A stretch of DNA of 9,030 nucleotides, from the IMG/VR virus record IMGVR_UViG_2706794687_000015; one strand, 5' to 3'. Position 1 is the first letter of the stretch; every line of letters starts with the position of its first letter. This document shows, one piece after another, positions 3,086 to 9,030 of this stretch. Both the position numbers and the translations under genes were made by a program. This stretch comes from a virus. Taxonomy: Duplodnaviria; Heunggongvirae; Uroviricota; Caudoviricetes. The notes beneath the pieces are model-generated. The model ran no database searches, was not told where the DNA came from, and was given only the letters and a program-made list of their open reading frames with translations.

Positions 3086-3100
3086 GGTAATGACTCCAAC

Positions 3101-3604
3101 TTATTGATAGTGTTTTATGTTCAGATAATGCCCGATGACTTTGTCATGCAGCTCCACCGATTTTGAGAACGACAGCGACTTCCGTCCCAGCCGTGCCAGG
3201 TGCTGCCTCAGATTCAGGTTATGCCGCTCAATTCGCTGCGTATATCGCTTGCTGATTACGTGCAGCTTTCCCTTCAGGCGGGATTCATACAGCGGCCAGC
3301 CATCCGTCATCCATATCACCACGTCAAAGGGTGACAGCAGGCTCATAAGACGCCCCAGCGTCGCCATAGTGCGTTCACCGAATACGTGCGCAACAACCGT
3401 CTTCCGGAGACTGTCATACGCGTAAAACAGCCAGCGCTGGCGCGATTTAGCCCCGACATAGCCCCACTGTTCGTCCATTTCCGCGCAGACGATGACGTCA
3501 CTGCCCGGCTGTATGCGCGAGGTTACCGACTGCGGCCTGAGTTTTTTAAGTGACGTAAAATCGTGTTGAGGCCAACGCCCATAATGCGTGCAGTTGCCCG
3601 GCAT
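3101..3604 (-). CDS. insB: IS1 InsB frame (167 aa), expressed as InsAB' fusion by -1 frameshift
   Basis: [19 protein letters not shown]... overlapping the insA 3' end in the -1 frame; canonical IS1 organisation. Confidence 0.9.
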
Positions 3605-3798
3605 CCAACGCCATTCATGGCCATATCAATGATTTTCTGGTGCGTACCGGGTTGAGAAGCGGTGTAAGTGAACTGCAGTTGCCATGTTTTACGGCAGTGA
3701 GAGCAGAGATAGCGCTGATGTCCGGCAGTGCTTTTGCCGTTACGCACCACCCCGTCAGTAGCTGAACAGGAGGGACAGCTGATAGAAACAGAAGCCAC
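3523..3798 (-). CDS. insA: IS1 InsA (91 aa), transposition inhibitor / N-terminal part of InsAB' transposase
   Basis: [42 protein letters not shown]... recognised as IS1 InsA with its zinc-finger Cys cluster. Confidence 0.93.
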
Positions 3799-3853
3799 TG
3801 GAGCACCTCAAAAACACCATCATACACTAAATCAGTAAGTTGGCAGCATCACC

Positions 3854-3944
3854 NNNNNNNNNNNNNNNNNNNNNNNNNNNNNNNNNNNNNNNNNNNNNNN
3901 NNNNNNNNNNNNNNNNNNNNNNNNNNNNNNNNNNNNNNNNNNNN
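3854..3944. other. Run of 91 N (assembly or scaffold gap, or masked sequence) between two IS1 copies
   Basis: Literal N characters in the sequence. Flanked on each side by a complete IS1 copy. Confidence 0.95.
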
Positions 3945-3959
3945 GGTAATGACTCCAAC

Positions 3960-4463
3960 TTATTGATAGTGTTTTATGTTCAGATAATGCCCGATGACTT
4001 TGTCATGCAGCTCCACCGATTTTGAGAACGACAGCGACTTCCGTCCCAGCCGTGCCAGGTGCTGCCTCAGATTCAGGTTATGCCGCTCAATTCGCTGCGT
4101 ATATCGCTTGCTGATTACGTGCAGCTTTCCCTTCAGGCGGGATTCATACAGCGGCCAGCCATCCGTCATCCATATCACCACGTCAAAGGGTGACAGCAGG
4201 CTCATAAGACGCCCCAGCGTCGCCATAGTGCGTTCACCGAATACGTGCGCAACAACCGTCTTCCGGAGACTGTCATACGCGTAAAACAGCCAGCGCTGGC
4301 GCGATTTAGCCCCGACATAGCCCCACTGTTCGTCCATTTCCGCGCAGACGATGACGTCACTGCCCGGCTGTATGCGCGAGGTTACCGACTGCGGCCTGAG
4401 TTTTTTAAGTGACGTAAAATCGTGTTGAGGCCAACGCCCATAATGCGTGCAGTTGCCCGGCAT
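3960..4463 (-). CDS. insB: IS1 InsB frame (167 aa)
   Basis: Protein identical to the copy 1 InsB. Confidence 0.9.
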
Positions 4464-4657
4464 CCAACGCCATTCATGGCCATATCAATGATTTTCTGGT
4501 GCGTACCGGGTTGAGAAGCGGTGTAAGTGAACTGCAGTTGCCATGTTTTACGGCAGTGAGAGCAGAGATAGCGCTGATGTCCGGCAGTGCTTTTGCCGTT
4601 ACGCACCACCCCGTCAGTAGCTGAACAGGAGGGACAGCTGATAGAAACAGAAGCCAC
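4382..4657 (-). CDS. insA: IS1 InsA (91 aa)
   Basis: Protein identical to the copy 1 InsA. Confidence 0.93.
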
Positions 4658-4819
4658 TGGAGCACCTCAAAAACACCATCATACACTAAATCAGTAAGTT
4701 GGCAGCATCACCGAAGTGGTAAAGAAGATAATAAAGAATAATATTTAGGGTTATAGGTCTTAGCCCATTTTAAATGGAAGGCAGACATGCAGCCATGCAT
4801 ACTTCGCATGGCAACATAA

Positions 4820-5161
4820 TTATTTAGACAAACTATCTAATTTTTGCGTCGCTTTTTGTGTTAGGTCGCTGTAACTGATAAACCCTACGTTAGCACCTAC
4901 AATTAACACTAAGAACACTAAGCTGCATATGGATAGAGTGGCAGATTTATGCTTATGGAAAACAAAATATGCTACTATTGCACTTAATATGAAGGAAATG
5001 AATAGAAATATAGATGTTGATGTTTTTAGATATTTTTCAGGAAATAATGGGTGAGCAATAATGTATACAAGATTAAGTAGTATATAAATTGCTACCGGAA
5101 TGAAAATCATGCTCCAGTGTGTATCTTTTTTGGGAGGGATTGGCTGCAAATAATCAGACAC
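4820..5161 (-). CDS. Hypothetical small integral membrane protein, 3 predicted TM helices (113 aa from GTG at 5161, or 96 aa from ATG at 5110)
   Basis: Minus-strand ORF ending TAA (plus 4820-4822). Three hydrophobic stretches: IFIPVAIYILLNLVYIIA, IFLFISFILSAIVAYFVF, ICSLVFLVLIVGANVGFI. Very AT-rich codon usage. No family recognised. Start codon ambiguous: GTG at 5161 has a weak GGA upstream; internal ATG at 5110 has GGAG only 1 nt upstream. Confidence 0.55.
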   Translation of the reverse strand: MSDYLQPIPPKKDTHWSMIFIPVAIYILLNLVYIIAHPLFPEKYLKTSTSIFLFISFILSAIVAYFVFHKHKSATLSICSLVFLVLIVGANVGFISYSDLTQKATQKLDSLSK

Positions 5162-5243
5162 CGTTTTTCCATCAGTTTCAAGAAGAATTACTAGATCTCT
5201 TACTTCACCACTGACTTGAGTGCATCCTTAGTAGTAATGTTAA

Positions 5244-5621
5244 TCATTTTTTCCCTCCAAATACGATGCCCTCTACGTCTTTGGAAGCTTTTTGTGATGA
5301 CCACTCCTCTGAATCAGGTGATTTAATTAAAAATATTGTATCTCCATCAAAAATCGTATTTGTTCCGTAAAAATTCACATTTGATAGATCACCACCAAAA
5401 ACCCTCTGCCCACTCGAGGTAATTGCCTCACCTAATTTAGTAAAATTACCAGCAATAGATGATTTTCTTTTTCCACTTCTATTCAAAGTGGCTTTAATTA
5501 CACCACCACCATCCTTAGAGTTAAATAATTGAATGTCCACTCCAGCAGTTGGTTGTATATATTTTGAAAGCTCTTTCTTGAACTTGTTAATATATTTATC
5601 TTTGTTTTCTTTGTTGGTCAT
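5244..5621 (-). CDS. Hypothetical soluble protein, 125 aa, Lys/Gly/Ser-rich, no Cys or His
   Basis: Minus-strand ORF MTNKENKDKYINKFKKELSKYIQPTAGVDIQLFNSKDGGGVIK...IVFGGKK from ATG at 5621. No signal peptide or TM segment. AT-rich. Lies 82 bp upstream of the membrane-protein ORF on the same strand, which suggests a two-gene operon. No family recognised. Confidence 0.6.
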   Translation of the reverse strand: MTNKENKDKYINKFKKELSKYIQPTAGVDIQLFNSKDGGGVIKATLNRSGKRKSSIAGNFTKLGEAITSSGQRVFGGDLSNVNFYGTNTIFDGDTIFLIKSPDSEEWSSQKASKDVEGIVFGGKK

Positions 5622-5658
5622 TGGTTAGATCCATAGTTCTGGCTGTGATTAGGTGAAA

Positions 5659-5664
5659 GTATAC
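5659..5664 (-). promoter_or_regulatory. Candidate -10 element (TATACT on minus strand) for the two-gene cassette
   Basis: TATACT about 38 nt upstream of the ATG at 5621 on the minus strand. No convincing -35 found. Weak, by-eye prediction only. Confidence 0.2.
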
Positions 5665-5793
5665 AAGGTTTTTAAAGCGAAGATCACTGTTTTGGCTTCA
5701 AGATAGTTTTGATTTATCGTAATCAATCCGCCATAATCCTCTCATCGGAGCCTGAACAACTCCGGTGACTTCTGCGCATTTAAGGGGACTTAA

Positions 5794-5889
5794 ATGCGAC
5801 CACAATCTGAACTCATCACCTTGTCACAGATGCAGAAATGCACCTGCGATTTTCTGCATTCTGCGGTTTCCGTTAGGGAGGCCGTATGA
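5794..5889 (+). CDS. ylcH: Small ORF (31 aa) translationally coupled to ybcN; possibly ylcH-like
   Basis: ATG at 5794 preceded by AAGGGGA. Encodes MRPQSELITLSQMQKCTCDFLHSAVSVREAV. Its TGA (5887-5889) overlaps the ybcN ATG (5886-5888) as ATGA. Position matches ylcH upstream of ybcN in DLP12, but the protein sequence was not verified from memory. Confidence 0.4.
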   Translation: MRPQSELITLSQMQKCTCDFLHSAVSVREAV

Positions 5890-6341
5890 CTCTGCCAGTA
5901 GACGGCATCAAACTCCATCGCGGTAACTTCGCGGCCATCGGCCAGCAGATTCAGCCATTGCTGGATGCCGGGCAATGCTTACGCCTGCAGGTTAAGCCGT
6001 GGCGCGAGAAGCGCAGCCTGTCGCAGAACGCGCTCAGCCACATGTGGTACACGGAGATCAGCGAATATCTCATCGCCCGCGGCAAGACCTTCGCTACGCC
6101 TGAGTGGGTCAAAGACGCGATGAAGCACACCTATCTCGGCTACGAAAGCAAAGACCGTGTAGATGTCGTGTCCGGCGAGGTCACCACCGTCCAATCCCTC
6201 CGCCATACGTCAGAGCTGGAAACCGGCGAGATGTACATCTTCCTGTGCAAAGTCGAAGCCTGGGCGATGAATATCGGCTGCCACCTGACAATTCCGCAGA
6301 GCTGTGAATACCAGCAGCTGCGCGATAAGCAGGAGGCGTAA
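5886..6341 (+). CDS. ybcN: Lambdoid prophage NinB/Orf-family protein YbcN (151 aa)
   Basis: ATG at 5886 with AGGGAGG 5 nt upstream. Protein MTLPVDGIKLHRGNF...REKRSLSQNALSHMW... shares the RSLxQN core with lambda NinB (Orf). Matches DLP12 YbcN in length and sequence as recalled. Confidence 0.85.
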   Translation: MTLPVDGIKLHRGNFAAIGQQIQPLLDAGQCLRLQVKPWREKRSLSQNALSHMWYTEISEYLIARGKTFATPEWVKDAMKHTYLGYESKDRVDVVSGEVTTVQSLRHTSELETGEMYIFLCKVEAWAMNIGCHLTIPQSCEYQQLRDKQEA

Positions 6342-6511
6342 TGGCTACACCGCTTATTCGTGTCATGAACGGGCACATCTACAGAGTATCAAATCGTCGT
6401 AAGCGTAAGCCTGAGCTGAAGCCATCCGAAATACCAACACTGCTCGGATATACCGCTAGCCTGGTTGATAAAAAATGGTTGCGACTGGCAGCAAGGAGGA
6501 ATCATGGCTGA
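6341..6511 (+). CDS. ninE: Prophage NinE-family protein (56 aa)
   Basis: ATG at 6341 overlaps the ybcN stop (TAATG). Encodes [56 protein letters not shown]. Its TGA overlaps the ybcO start (ATGGCTGA). Below the length cutoff of the supplied ORF track. Confidence 0.8.
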   Translation: MATPLIRVMNGHIYRVSNRRKRKPELKPSEIPTLLGYTASLVDKKWLRLAARRNHG

Positions 6512-6794
6512 TTTGAGAAAAGCAGCGCGTGGTCGGGAATGCCAGGTAAGAATCCCTGGCGTATGTAATGGCAATCCTGAAACGTCAGTACTGGCACATA
6601 TCCGGCTGGCTGGATTGTGCGGTACCGGTATCAAACCGCCAGACCTGATTGCCACCATTGCATGTTCTGCCTGTCACGACGAAATCGACCGCCGCACATA
6701 TTTTGTCGATGCTGAGTATGCAAAAGAATGCGCGCTGGAAGGTATGGCGAGAACGCAGGTTATCTGGCTGAAAGAGGGGGTTATTAAGGCGTGA
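6504..6794 (+). CDS. ybcO: Prophage DUF1364-family Cys-rich protein YbcO (96 aa), putative zinc-binding nuclease
   Basis: ATG at 6504 with AGGAGG 4 nt upstream (the track ORF begins at an upstream in-frame ATG at 6465). Protein [23 protein letters not shown]...[11 protein letters not shown] has a Cys4 plus His cluster. Matches YbcO as recalled. Confidence 0.85.
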
Positions 6795-7153
6795 ATACCT
6801 ACAGCATCACATTACCCTGGCCTCCGAGCAATAACCGCTATTACCGCCATAATCGCGGGCGCACACACATCAGCGCAGAAGGGCAGGCATACCGCGATAA
6901 CGTCACCCGAATCATTAAAAACGCAATGCTGGATATCGGCCTGGCTATGCCAGTGAAAATCCGTATTGAGTGCCACATGCCGGATCGCCGTCGCCGTGAC
7001 CTGGATAATCTGCAAAAAGCCGCTTTTGACGCACTCACCAAAGCAGGTTTCTGGCTGGATGATGCTCAGGTCGTTGATTACCGCGTTGTGAAGATGCCTG
7101 TTACCAAAGGTGGGAGGCTGGAACTGACCATCACCGAAATGGGGAATGAATGA
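6791..7153 (+). CDS. rusA: Holliday junction resolvase RusA (120 aa)
   Basis: GTG start at 6791 overlapping the ybcO stop (GTGA). Protein [24 protein letters not shown]... contains the acidic catalytic region RRDLDNL ... [11 protein letters not shown]. Matches E. coli RusA as recalled. Confidence 0.9.
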
Positions 7154-7290
7154 TGTTTGAGTTTTATATGGCAGAACTTCTTCGCCACCGCTGGGGGCAT
7201 CTGCGCTTATATCGTTTCCCCGGTTCTGTTTTGACCGATTACCGAATACTGAAGAATTACGCCAAAACCCTGACAGGAGCAGGAGTATGA
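7150..7290 (+). CDS. ylcG: Small prophage protein YlcG (46 aa)
   Basis: Tandem ATGs at 7150 and 7153 overlap the rusA stop (ATGATG). Encodes [46 protein letters not shown], stop TGA at 7288-7290. Below the length cutoff of the supplied ORF track. Confidence 0.7.
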
Positions 7291-7375
7291 AGTCAGAGAT
7301 AACAATCAACTAATACTGTTTTGTTGATTTTTGCTTGTAATTGGCGTTCTGGTCTGATTTTTGTGGAGTAAGTTG

Positions 7376-7759
7376 ATGCGTGATATTCAGATGGTTCTTG
7401 AGCGTTGGGGAGCGTGGGCGGCTAATAATCATGAAGATGTGACCTGGTCGTCCATTGCCGCCGGTTTTAAGGGATTAATTACTTCAAAAGTAAAATCTCG
7501 CCCGCAATGTTGTGACGATGACGCGATGATTATTTGCGGGTGCATGGCCCGTCTGAAAAAGAACAACAGCGATTTGCACGATTTATTAGTAGATTATTAT
7601 GTAGTCGGTATGACATTCATGTCACTGGCAGGTAAGCATTGCTGCTCTGATGGTTATATCGGGAAAAGGTTACAGAAGGCTGAGGGCATAATTGAAGGGA
7701 TGTTAATGGCATTAGATATCCGGTTAGAGATGGATATCGTTGTTAATAACTCTAATTAA
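7376..7759 (+). CDS. quuD: Late-gene antiterminator Q (127 aa)
   Basis: ATG at 7376 with GGAG 7 nt upstream (the track ORF starts at an upstream TTG). Protein [24 protein letters not shown]...[16 protein letters not shown]... has the Cys-rich zinc-binding region. Matches DLP12 QuuD as recalled. Confidence 0.85.
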
Positions 7760-7793
7760 TATGCCAATTGTTTACTAAAAATTATTAAAAATG

Positions 7794-7811
7794 GGGCGTT
7801 GCAACGCCCCC
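7794..7811 (-). terminator. Perfect 18-bp palindrome GGGGCGTTGCAACGCCCC flanked by A5/T5 runs; likely intrinsic terminator for minus-strand (nmpC) transcripts, possibly bidirectional
   Basis: GC-rich hairpin. On the minus strand it is followed immediately by ATTTTTAATAATTTTT. On the plus strand it is followed by CAAAAATAAA, a poor U-tract. Confidence 0.4.
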
Positions 7812-7899
7812 AAAAATAAAGGGTAATATATAACAGAAGGTTTATATAGTTAGAAGCAAGGTTGTGCTCCTAAAGGAAGTGGCTTGAGGGAGCCACTTA

Positions 7900-7933
7900 T
7901 ATGTTGGGGAGGCAAAGCCTCCCGCAACATATC
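7900..7933 (+). terminator. Strong hairpin followed by CTTTT on the plus strand; candidate tR'-like terminator of the Q-controlled late leader, or nmpC 3' stem-loop
   Basis: Core stem GGGAGGC (7908-7914), loop AAA, GCCTCCC (7918-7924), extended by ATATGTTG / CAACATAT with a 1-nt bulge. Followed by CTTTTAG. A second hairpin AAGTGGCT-TGAGGG-AGCCACTT sits immediately upstream at 7878-7899. Confidence 0.4.
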
Positions 7934-7947
7934 TTTTAGTAATCAAA

Positions 7948-9030
7948 TTAGAACTGGTAAACCATACCTACAGCAACGATATCATCGGTAGCAACGCCAG
8001 ATGCTTTCGTGAAATCGCTCTTATCAATCAGGTTGATTTTGTAATCAACAAAAGTGGACATATTTTTGTTGAAGTAATAGGTTGCACCTACATCAATATA
8101 TTCAACCAGGTCCTGATCACCCCACGCACCCAAGTCTTTTCCTTTAGATTGCAGGTAAGCAACGGACGGACGCAGACCGAAGTCGAACTGATATTGTGCA
8201 ACTACTTCGAAGTTTTGTGCTTTGTTGGCAATATGGTTATTACCAAAAACAGTCATGTTCTGGGTTTCAGAATAGGTGGTAGCCAGATAGATGTTGTTCG
8301 CATCATATTTCAGACCAGCTGCCCATACTTCAGCATTTTGACCAGATGCATTCAGGCTGTTGTTACCGTAGATAACCTGATTATTAGTGCGGTCAGATTT
8401 AGCATAGGTTGCACCTACACCGAATCCTTCATACTCATAAGTAGTGGAGAAACCGAAACCATCACCATTAGCTTCAGTTACGTCAGTGCGGTCATTTTTA
8501 CCCTGATACTGAGCAGCAAAGTTCAGACCATCAACCAGACCAAAGAAGTCGTTGTTACGATAAGTTGCAACACCAGTGGTGCGACCAGTCATGAACACAT
8601 CTGTTTGAGTCCAAGTGTCACCACCGAATTCTGGCAGGACGTCAGTCCACGCACCGATGTCGTATGCTACACCGTAGTTACGGCCGTAATCGATGGAGCC
8701 GTAGTCACCGAATTTCAGGCCAGCGAAGGCAAGACGGGTTTTATCTTTGGAGGAACCTTGAGATTCAGCGCGGTTGCCTTTGAATTCATATTCCCACTGA
8801 CCGAAACCAGTCAGTTGATCGTTGATTTGGGTTTCACCTTTGAAGCCAAGACGGGCATAAGTAGTATCACCATCATCTGCATCATTAGAGGAGAAGTAGT
8901 GCTTAGCATTAACTTTCCCGTACAGATCCAGCTTGTTACTGTCTTTATTATAAATTTCAGCTGCCTGAGCAGACATCGCCATCAGTACTGATGCAGCTAC
9001 AGCAGAAATTGCCACTGTTAATTTTTTCAT
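7948..9030 (-). CDS. nmpC: Outer-membrane general porin of the OmpC/OmpF/NmpC family (360 aa), prophage-encoded, apparently intact
   Basis: Minus-strand ORF from ATG at 9030 (window edge) to TAA at 7948-7950. Signal peptide [23 protein letters not shown], mature N-terminus AEIYNKD, C-terminal ...VGMVYQF with terminal Phe typical of beta-barrel OMPs. Closely resembles NmpC/OmpD as recalled. No IS interruption inside the ORF. Confidence 0.9.

Follow-up and report, generated by a model that had tools for sequence, protein, structure and literature searches.

The window analysed here is a stretch of 9,030 nucleotides from the IMG/VR virus record IMGVR_UViG_2706794687_000015 (Caudoviricetes), read on one strand from 5' to 3'. 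At about positions 4742-5706, it carries an AT-rich cassette of two genes, called here A and B, located between a copy of the insertion sequence (IS) IS1 and the nin module of a prophage. The cassette is best described as a self-contained mobile two-gene operon, a moron standing antisense to the early-right operon of a DLP12/Rac-like lambdoid prophage. The anatomy of the pair, its obligate association across phyla, the purifying selection acting on both genes, their mobility and their occurrence in defence or toxin-antitoxin neighbourhoods are regarded as established. The function is addressed more tentatively, a toxin-antitoxin-like module of the abortive-infection type being the explanation favoured below. 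From left to right, the window contains:

1-2562: mutS (open reading frame map)
Downstream of mutS: fragment of pphB, interrupted by the first IS1 copy
3086-3853: IS1 copy 1, cutting pphB, in the same orientation as copy 2
3854-3944: run of 91 N, lying between both IS1 copies
3945-4712, minus strand: IS1 copy 2 with the insA/insB reading frames; it truncates the prophage, lies outside the cassette and sets its left flank here
4713-4741, plus strand: terminal ~29 nt of the replication gene P, convergent with gene B (alignment with E. coli 536)
4742-4819: intergenic stretch between convergent genes, with two hairpins; candidate bidirectional terminator zone 3' of gene B
4820-5247, minus strand: gene B (phrog_16940), a frameshifted pseudogene here, with a residual reading frame at 4820-5161
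5244-5621, minus strand: gene A (phrog_18061), 125 aa, intact
5622-5706, minus strand: leader and putative own promoter of the A-B operon
5707-5885, plus strand: conserved nin-region leader upstream of ybcN, a flank outside the cassette
5886-6341: ybcN, starting a DLP12-type late-early module and followed by ninE, ybcO, rusA, ylcG and quuD
7948-9030, minus strand: nmpC/ompC-like porin gene (360 aa), ending the window and intact up to its edge

Boundaries and signals of the cassette

The GC content is 0.352 over positions 4713-5793 and 0.338 for the two genes, compared with 0.565 for mutS, 0.53 for IS1 and 0.50 for the nin module, in agreement with the initial annotation of this DNA, which had described the cassette as much richer in AT than these three flanks. 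On the left side, the inverted repeat of IS1 terminates at 4712, separated by 107 bp from the stop of the membrane gene as first noted, and homology to the E. coli 536 prophage begins exactly at 4713, within the last ~29 nt of P. In E. coli 536, P ends 78 bp from the stop of gene B. Since P is the next gene past B in intact prophages, IS1 took P and everything to the left of it but no component of the cassette, and the earlier suggestion that further components might have been removed has to be abandoned. On the right side, the cassette had been drawn up to 5793, an edge that is not retained because positions 5707-5900 belong to a widely conserved nin leader (~190 bp) that recurs in 2780 E. 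coli records as well as in phages HK639, HK225, phi80 and 82. This leader includes a perfect 10-bp inverted repeat at 5775-5798 (CGCATTTAAG / CTTAAATGCG). The region is annotated as IR4 in phi80, and as a possible regulator-binding site and promoter in phage 82.

Upstream of gene A, a TATACT -10-like element occurs at 5663-5658, about 36 nt from the ATG. Either this hexamer or TATAGT recurs at a comparable spacing from A in E. coli, Klebsiella-type and L010 cassettes, the leaders of which are otherwise diverged, and the A-B operon would have its own promoter in the leader 5622-5706. Beyond gene B, an inverted repeat at 4787-4817 lies 3' of the gene, a terminator-like site is present on the plus strand at 4748-4766, and the predicted RNA fold of the region downstream of B has a free energy of -23.2 kcal/mol (z = -3.2). 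The hairpins at 4742-4819 thus constitute a candidate bidirectional terminator zone. The Rfam search of the window returned zero RNA families.

Anatomy of the two genes and decay of the window copy

As initially annotated, the two genes are co-oriented on the minus strand, with reading frames at 5244-5621 and 4820-5161. The first one encodes the expected soluble protein of 125 aa, which is basic, has no hydrophobic segment and matches phrog_18061 over positions 1-125 of 125 (E = 9.3e-85). The second reading frame (4820-5161, 113 aa from a GTG) matches phrog_16940 (E = 2.2e-74) and aligns only with positions 30-142 of this 142-position profile, as a result of a frameshift. Indeed, direct alignment reveals that one G of a GG pair is missing at 5223, in codon 9 of gene B (GGATGGCA -> GGATGCA), and the reading of gene B in the window stops after 15 codons. 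The gap of 82 bp first reported between the genes and the size of ~100 aa first given to the membrane protein both arise because this 1-nt deletion shifts the frame in codon 9. The three predicted transmembrane (TM) helices of that protein are found in the window, whereas its true size is 142 aa, as in E. coli 536 and in the length of the PHROG profile.

In the annotation of E. coli 536, where the pair A-B bears the locus tags ECP_RS05855/ECP_RS05850, A (WP_000182282.1, 125 aa) and B (WP_000608370.1, 142 aa) overlap by 4 nt. This ATGA overlap is found in 44 of the 46 complete E. coli genomes with the cassette, and the spacing in the window is consequently a frameshift artefact. The true start of B is the ATG within the ATGA overlap, preceded by a GGAGG Shine-Dalgarno sequence, and, judged from this arrangement, B is translationally coupled to A. 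Intact B consists of an acidic cytoplasmic N-terminal domain of ~36 aa, which is the most conserved portion of the protein, three TM helices, of which TM2 and TM3 are linked by a short basic loop, and an amphipathic helix at the C-terminus. The AlphaFold2 model of B (predicted local distance difference test, pLDDT, of 73) displays a β-hairpin and a helix followed by three long helices, and that of A, built on a shallow alignment (pLDDT 58), displays an α-ββ-α-ββ-α topology. A has a basic N-terminal helix (mean +3.3), and B an acidic N-terminal domain (0 to -6); these opposite charges would fit a contact between A and B.

Both genes bear the marks of real coding sequences. Among E. coli, Enterobacter, Klebsiella-type and L010 alleles, the synonymous divergence (dS) ranges from 0.6 to 2.5 and the ratio of non-synonymous to synonymous divergence (dN/dS) from 0.07 to 0.19 for both genes, and by these values both are under strong purifying selection. 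The first 36 codons of B differ between the E. coli and Enterobacter alleles by 13 synonymous and 0 non-synonymous changes, so the N-terminal extension is truly coding. The idea of spurious reading frames is rejected by these dN/dS ratios together with the pairing kept across phyla.

A second IMG/VR record (L045) is 100% identical to positions 4482-9030 of the window, with the deletion and the IS1 junction included. The lesion in B is therefore probably real, unless both records share one assembly, and the frameshift is probably genuine rather than a one-off error. Gene A is intact in the window, and any re-initiation on B would yield a product lacking the conserved N-terminal domain. With B frameshifted and the surrounding prophage reduced by IS1 to a truncated remnant, the copy in the window probably does not function.

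Distribution, obligate pairing and neighbours

Complete E. coli genomes rarely carry the cassette (46 of 5426; megablast, at least 99% identity), and close homologues of both proteins are confined to Enterobacteriaceae. The slot was compared in E. coli 536, CV839-06, Es_ST80, six Klebsiella/Enterobacter-type loci and one more divergent locus. The pair is always antisense and always located between the replication module and the gene in NinB position, which is YbcN, NinB or DUF1367. The carrier prophages are mosaic, as their replication genes can be of the O/P, DnaB or IstB type and the Q type also varies. In lambda, the counterpart of this slot is occupied by ren. The latter and other morons of the P/ninB slot resemble A-B by their location and variable occupancy, but ren is a single gene on the strand of the early operon, whereas A-B consists of two genes on the opposite strand with a foreign base composition.

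With regard to the definition of a moron, the cassette is a discrete insert between conserved modules, with a GC content of 0.338 against 0.50, and is found in 46 of 5426 genomes against 2780 records for the nin leader. As to its own promoter and terminator, TATACT or TATAGT occurs at a conserved distance and hairpins are present downstream, although the -10-like element escaped the promoter scan. The position, base composition and variable presence of the insert support the view of a horizontally acquired moron in a variable lambdoid slot. Both corresponding proposals of the initial annotation have thus held: the foreign origin of the cargo, in view of its low GC, its patchy presence and its mosaic carriers, and its insertion in a variable accessory site upstream of a ninB-like gene.

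At the locus L010 (5665-7348), the same slot includes, beside A-B, a gene encoding a 377-aa protein with a weak match to the pore-forming Colicin domain. It is adjoined by a convergent gene (174 aa) with a weak match to Colicin_im, and these two genes may possibly form a prophage-borne bacteriocin module.

Gene A is independently hit by IS1 in E. coli CV839-06 (L001:12831-13528) and in the IMG/VR contig L058 (~4880), which ends in IS1 before B, and it carries a 1-nt frameshift in Es_ST80 (L003:8617-8862). In CV839-06 and Es_ST80, B is intact despite the destroyed A, with a polar effect or a sequencing error as possible explanations. In lineages rich in IS1, decay of the cassette seems to have occurred repeatedly.

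Beyond the enteric bacteria, the A profile, searched with HMMER against the full set of 1.84 billion representatives, delineates a family of 111 clusters (50% identity), nearly all of 120-135 aa, aligned over their full length and 20-40% identical. Its members share the motifs YINNFRR..L.P.IG, GGA(I/V).E, Q.AFGGNL.G..F.GTN, RI.LIKD and EWS..A..DV, with conserved residues Y10, G39, F84, G86, T87, K100, W107 and D115. The homologues are labelled "hypothetical protein" in their source records, and phrog_18061 is matched by 70 of the 70 that were tested. In the taxonomic survey of related loci, which used a subset of the 70-sequence A alignment, the hosts include Deltaproteobacteria, Myxococcales, Acidobacteriota, a betaproteobacterium, Mariniflexile, Bacteroides and Flavobacterium.

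All loci that extend past A (L011, L012, L015-L026, L028-L038 and L040) have a B-type gene directly after it, usually with a 4-nt overlap. The B-type proteins measure 125-154 aa, with one of 211 aa, and retain the same architecture, namely an acidic soluble N-terminus of ~30-45 aa, then three hydrophobic helices, the second and third of which are joined by a basic loop, and finally an amphipathic helix at the C-terminus. Their N-terminal motif can be written strand-G(T/D)-helix "EEIKNF"-G-"DY(L/F)". The conservation of the pair, proposed as a check in the initial annotation, therefore extends far beyond Enterobacteriaceae, and the two reading frames hold as a pair.

A fusion of A with a nuclease has also been found. 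The protein P0104 (L013:246-1589, 447 aa) combines an A domain (residues 7-119) with an HNH nuclease domain (191-231) and an uncharacterised C-terminal part of ~200 aa, on a 1.7-kb contig that leaves no space for a B gene. This arrangement is suggestive of a sensor joined to an alternative effector.

These data bear on the possibility of superinfection exclusion at the inner membrane, in which B would block phage DNA entry like SieA, Imm or Sim-type proteins and A would be accessory. A small inner-membrane protein encoded in a prophage moron slot, antisense to the lytic operon, would suit such a role, and lambda holds the exclusion-related ren in the same slot. However, known exclusion proteins are encoded by single genes and are phage- or receptor-specific, whereas A-B is an obligate pair spread over phyla, plasmids and non-phage islands. 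Moreover, the fusion of A with HNH indicates an intracellular effector logic, and there is no homology to exclusion families. As the obligate soluble partner and the non-phage contexts make a membrane exclusion role less likely, this explanation is judged very improbable.

The genes surrounding the pair outside Enterobacteriaceae are diverse. On a small plasmid contig of 4.8 kb (L011), which carries Rep, A-B, MobC and a relaxase, A and B are the only non-backbone genes called. The pair stands directly upstream of BrxA-BrxB in L018, and between the Mod and Res genes of a type III restriction-modification (R-M) system on a Bacteroides contig (L023, 16-9922), where an SNF2 helicase gene and a DUF4391 gene precede the R-M cluster. 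It adjoins a ParE toxin and its antitoxin in L026, DUF2442 in L020, and PIN, DUF4160 and DUF2442 in L017. Two loci (L022 and L015) have the pair flanked by IS elements, and four others (L034, L035, L028 and L040) are unrelated temperate-phage genomes. When the neighbour proteins are pooled across loci, they match the PADLOC candidate systems PDC-S22, PDC-S05 and mad3, and also the DrmD-like and HKD+Snf2 PADLOC models, all of these being matches of the pool rather than of a given locus. Such a context would be typical of mobile defence or toxin-antitoxin cargo.

Regarding the left part of the window, the linkage of mutS to the prophage is an assembly inference because the N run separates two IS1 copies; this scaffolding crosses a gap between repeats, and the true adjacency may be doubted. 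At the other end, relatives annotate the counterpart of the porin gene as OmpC. In E. coli K-12, the porin homologue of DLP12 is interrupted by IS5.

Possible functions of the pair

The initial annotation could not name a family for either protein, and profile searches lead to the same outcome, as only unannotated PHROGs are matched. Neither phrog_18061 nor phrog_16940 has a functional annotation, and membership therefore names the pair and explains nothing. Pfam and NCBIfam gave no significant match for A or B, and the homologues of both were likewise empty. In particular, no HTH (helix-turn-helix), RHH (ribbon-helix-helix) or other antitoxin DNA-binding domain was found in A with these two databases, and matches to Colicin_im or holin families of Pfam are absent for B and 18 B-type proteins, which give only sub-threshold generic TM matches. 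With PADLOC-DB 2.0.0, A had no match and the best one for B was at E = 0.17, and the 70 A homologues yielded only scattered single matches (E > 0.002). The profile search of the PDB with the 70 A homologues returned nothing below E = 0.025, and Foldseek against BFVD returned no match at E <= 1e-3. The main text and supplementary tables of DefensePredictor include neither accession and neither N-terminal peptide. The Tai system was set aside, as its proteins carry no TM segments.

The pair thus corresponds to a two-gene module of a soluble and a membrane protein on a mobile element, with proteins devoid of detectable homology to described examples. The closest likeness is with the RexAB-type systems, i.e., lambda RexAB, RexABpp of P. 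putida, gp30/gp31 of Sbash and gp44/gp43 of CarolAnn, which are also prophage-borne two-gene operons, with expression expected in the lysogen, encoding a soluble protein and then a small multi-pass membrane protein of ~140 aa. Growth arrest in Rex systems is brought about by the membrane protein, which the soluble partner triggers (PMC12894663). A-B differs from them by its location in the P/ninB slot instead of next to cI, and by its occurrence across phyla and outside phages. RexA counts 279 aa against 125 aa for A. RexB has four TM helices, whereas B has three plus a conserved N-terminal soluble domain.

With RexA/RexB-type systems as a model for the roles of both proteins, A-B may be a toxin-antitoxin-like module of the abortive-infection type, a reading that comes close to being probable without quite reaching it. 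As transcription from pR crosses the cassette in antisense, expression in the lysogen would be driven by a promoter belonging to the operon itself. B would then act at the inner membrane as the effector, whereas A would serve as a cytoplasmic sensor or regulator working through the N-terminal domain of B. An architecture of abortive-infection, exclusion or toxin-antitoxin modules had been evoked in the initial annotation; it is consistent with the anatomy of the pair and with its neighbourhoods (BREX, type III R-M, ParE, PIN, DUF2442 and plasmid cargo), whereas matches to the known families of such modules are lacking.

The attribution of roles could also be reversed. As summarised in PMC12894663, the membrane protein of the mycobacteriophage Butters pair gp30/gp31 sequesters a toxic soluble effector. 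This pair resembles A-B in being a prophage pair of a cytosolic and a membrane protein, in a host of a different phylum. The sizes of its proteins and their number of TM helices differ from those of A-B. Roles of this kind could apply to A and B and are a live alternative to the Rex-like assignment. Pairs of the GhoS/GhoT type are similar to A-B in another respect, as a small soluble gene comes first and a small membrane gene second, both being coupled and found on mobile elements among toxin-antitoxin loci. GhoT is a protein of 57 aa with two TM helices, and GhoS is an RNase. In contrast to such pairs, A matches no antitoxin family or domain, and genomes with a disrupted A and an intact B exist.

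This last observation is also central to the hypothesis of an addiction-type toxin-antitoxin pair, in which B would be a membrane-depolarising toxin and A a labile antitoxin, the pair stabilising its carrier prophage or plasmid rather than acting against phages. The layout is that of type II systems, with small, adjacent, mostly ATGA-overlapping genes on plasmid, prophage and island DNA, and a soluble protein encoded ahead of its partner, with translation of the two small genes coupled, is what such a system would look like. The patchy spread over phyla points in the same direction, as do the plasmid contig on which A-B is the sole non-backbone content called beside Rep, MobC and the relaxase, and the proximity of ParE with its antitoxin, PIN and DUF4160/DUF2442. 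The loss of B and retention of A in the window is, moreover, a common order of decay of toxin-antitoxin loci. Against this stand CV839-06 and Es_ST80, in which A is destroyed by IS1 or a frameshift and B is intact (subject to the polar effect or sequencing error mentioned above); such genotypes would be expected to be lethal if A were an essential antitoxin, and they weaken a pure addiction role. In addition, no DNA-binding domain of an antitoxin, whether HTH, RHH or other, was found in A, neither protein matches a toxin-antitoxin family, and neither a type II antitoxin domain nor a known toxin superfamily was detected in A, B or their homologues with Pfam and NCBIfam. Addiction as the main role is thus unlikely, though conceivable.

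Several observations weigh against the abortive-infection module favoured here. Searches of PADLOC, Pfam, NCBIfam and the PDB did not connect either protein, by sequence or by fold, with known defence, toxin-antitoxin or exclusion proteins. The structure models are weak (pLDDT 58 for A and 73 for B), and the fold searches with them gave generic matches only. The comparison of profiles by hhalign yielded a probability of 0.04% (E = 0.92) for A against lambda RexA and of 0.2% for B against lambda RexB, which places A-B outside the Rex family, as sizes, TM count and position also differ. The -10-like element upstream of A was missed by a consensus promoter scan. A tblastn search of 50,697 GenBank phage records with A gave zero matches, and the enteric evidence therefore comes from prophages alone. 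The HNH fusion is a single metagenomic instance. The literature search on either accession or PHROG family found no paper, though an earlier description may exist. The neighbourhood evidence is anecdotal, as a known defence system adjoins the pair in only ~2 of the ~16 non-enteric loci, a raw proportion not set against a background rate, and three loci have ordinary neighbours, namely a response regulator and valS (L019), a CLC channel (L025) and smc-zipA-ligA (L031).

These last loci are what would be expected if A-B had an accessory function in membrane physiology or lysogenic conversion unrelated to conflict, such as stress tolerance, transporter regulation or envelope modification, the links with defence and toxin-antitoxin genes reflecting mere co-residence in variable islands. 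The lack of a recognisable catalytic or toxin motif fits this possibility, and the conserved residues of A look structural or binding. Nonetheless, a patchy distribution on mobile genetic elements as a compact coupled pair is not in its favour, nor is the position of one pair between Mod and Res and of another adjoining BrxA, nor the plasmid contig, a mobilisable one, on which the pair is the only non-backbone cargo called. A function of this kind is considered quite unlikely.

A broader version of the abortive-infection module can be envisaged, at a level of confidence that makes it a doubtful though conceivable extension. A-B would represent an undescribed cross-phylum immune module, borne by temperate phages, plasmids and defence islands, in which a new sensor/regulator fold of ~125 aa is coupled to interchangeable effectors and aborts infection by competing phages. 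The effector would almost always be the 3-TM protein acting in trans and, in the rare fusion, an HNH nuclease acting in cis.

The copy in the window is a decayed remnant, for which automatic gene calls would give a wrong size to the membrane gene. The P/ninB (ren) slot of lambdoid prophages that it occupies is documented as a hot-spot for cargo. The role of the pair is directly testable thanks to the strict conservation of two genes and of a small N-terminal domain on the membrane partner, and natural knock-outs are of help in this respect, with the frameshift of B here and the disruption of A by IS1 or a frameshift elsewhere. An intact copy is available in the well-studied uropathogen E. coli 536. 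If A-B is a defence or toxin-antitoxin module, it would be a compact system of ~0.8 kb made of two proteins without homology to known families, missed by PADLOC 2.0.0, Pfam and NCBIfam and spread from enterobacterial prophages to Bacteroidota and Myxococcota.

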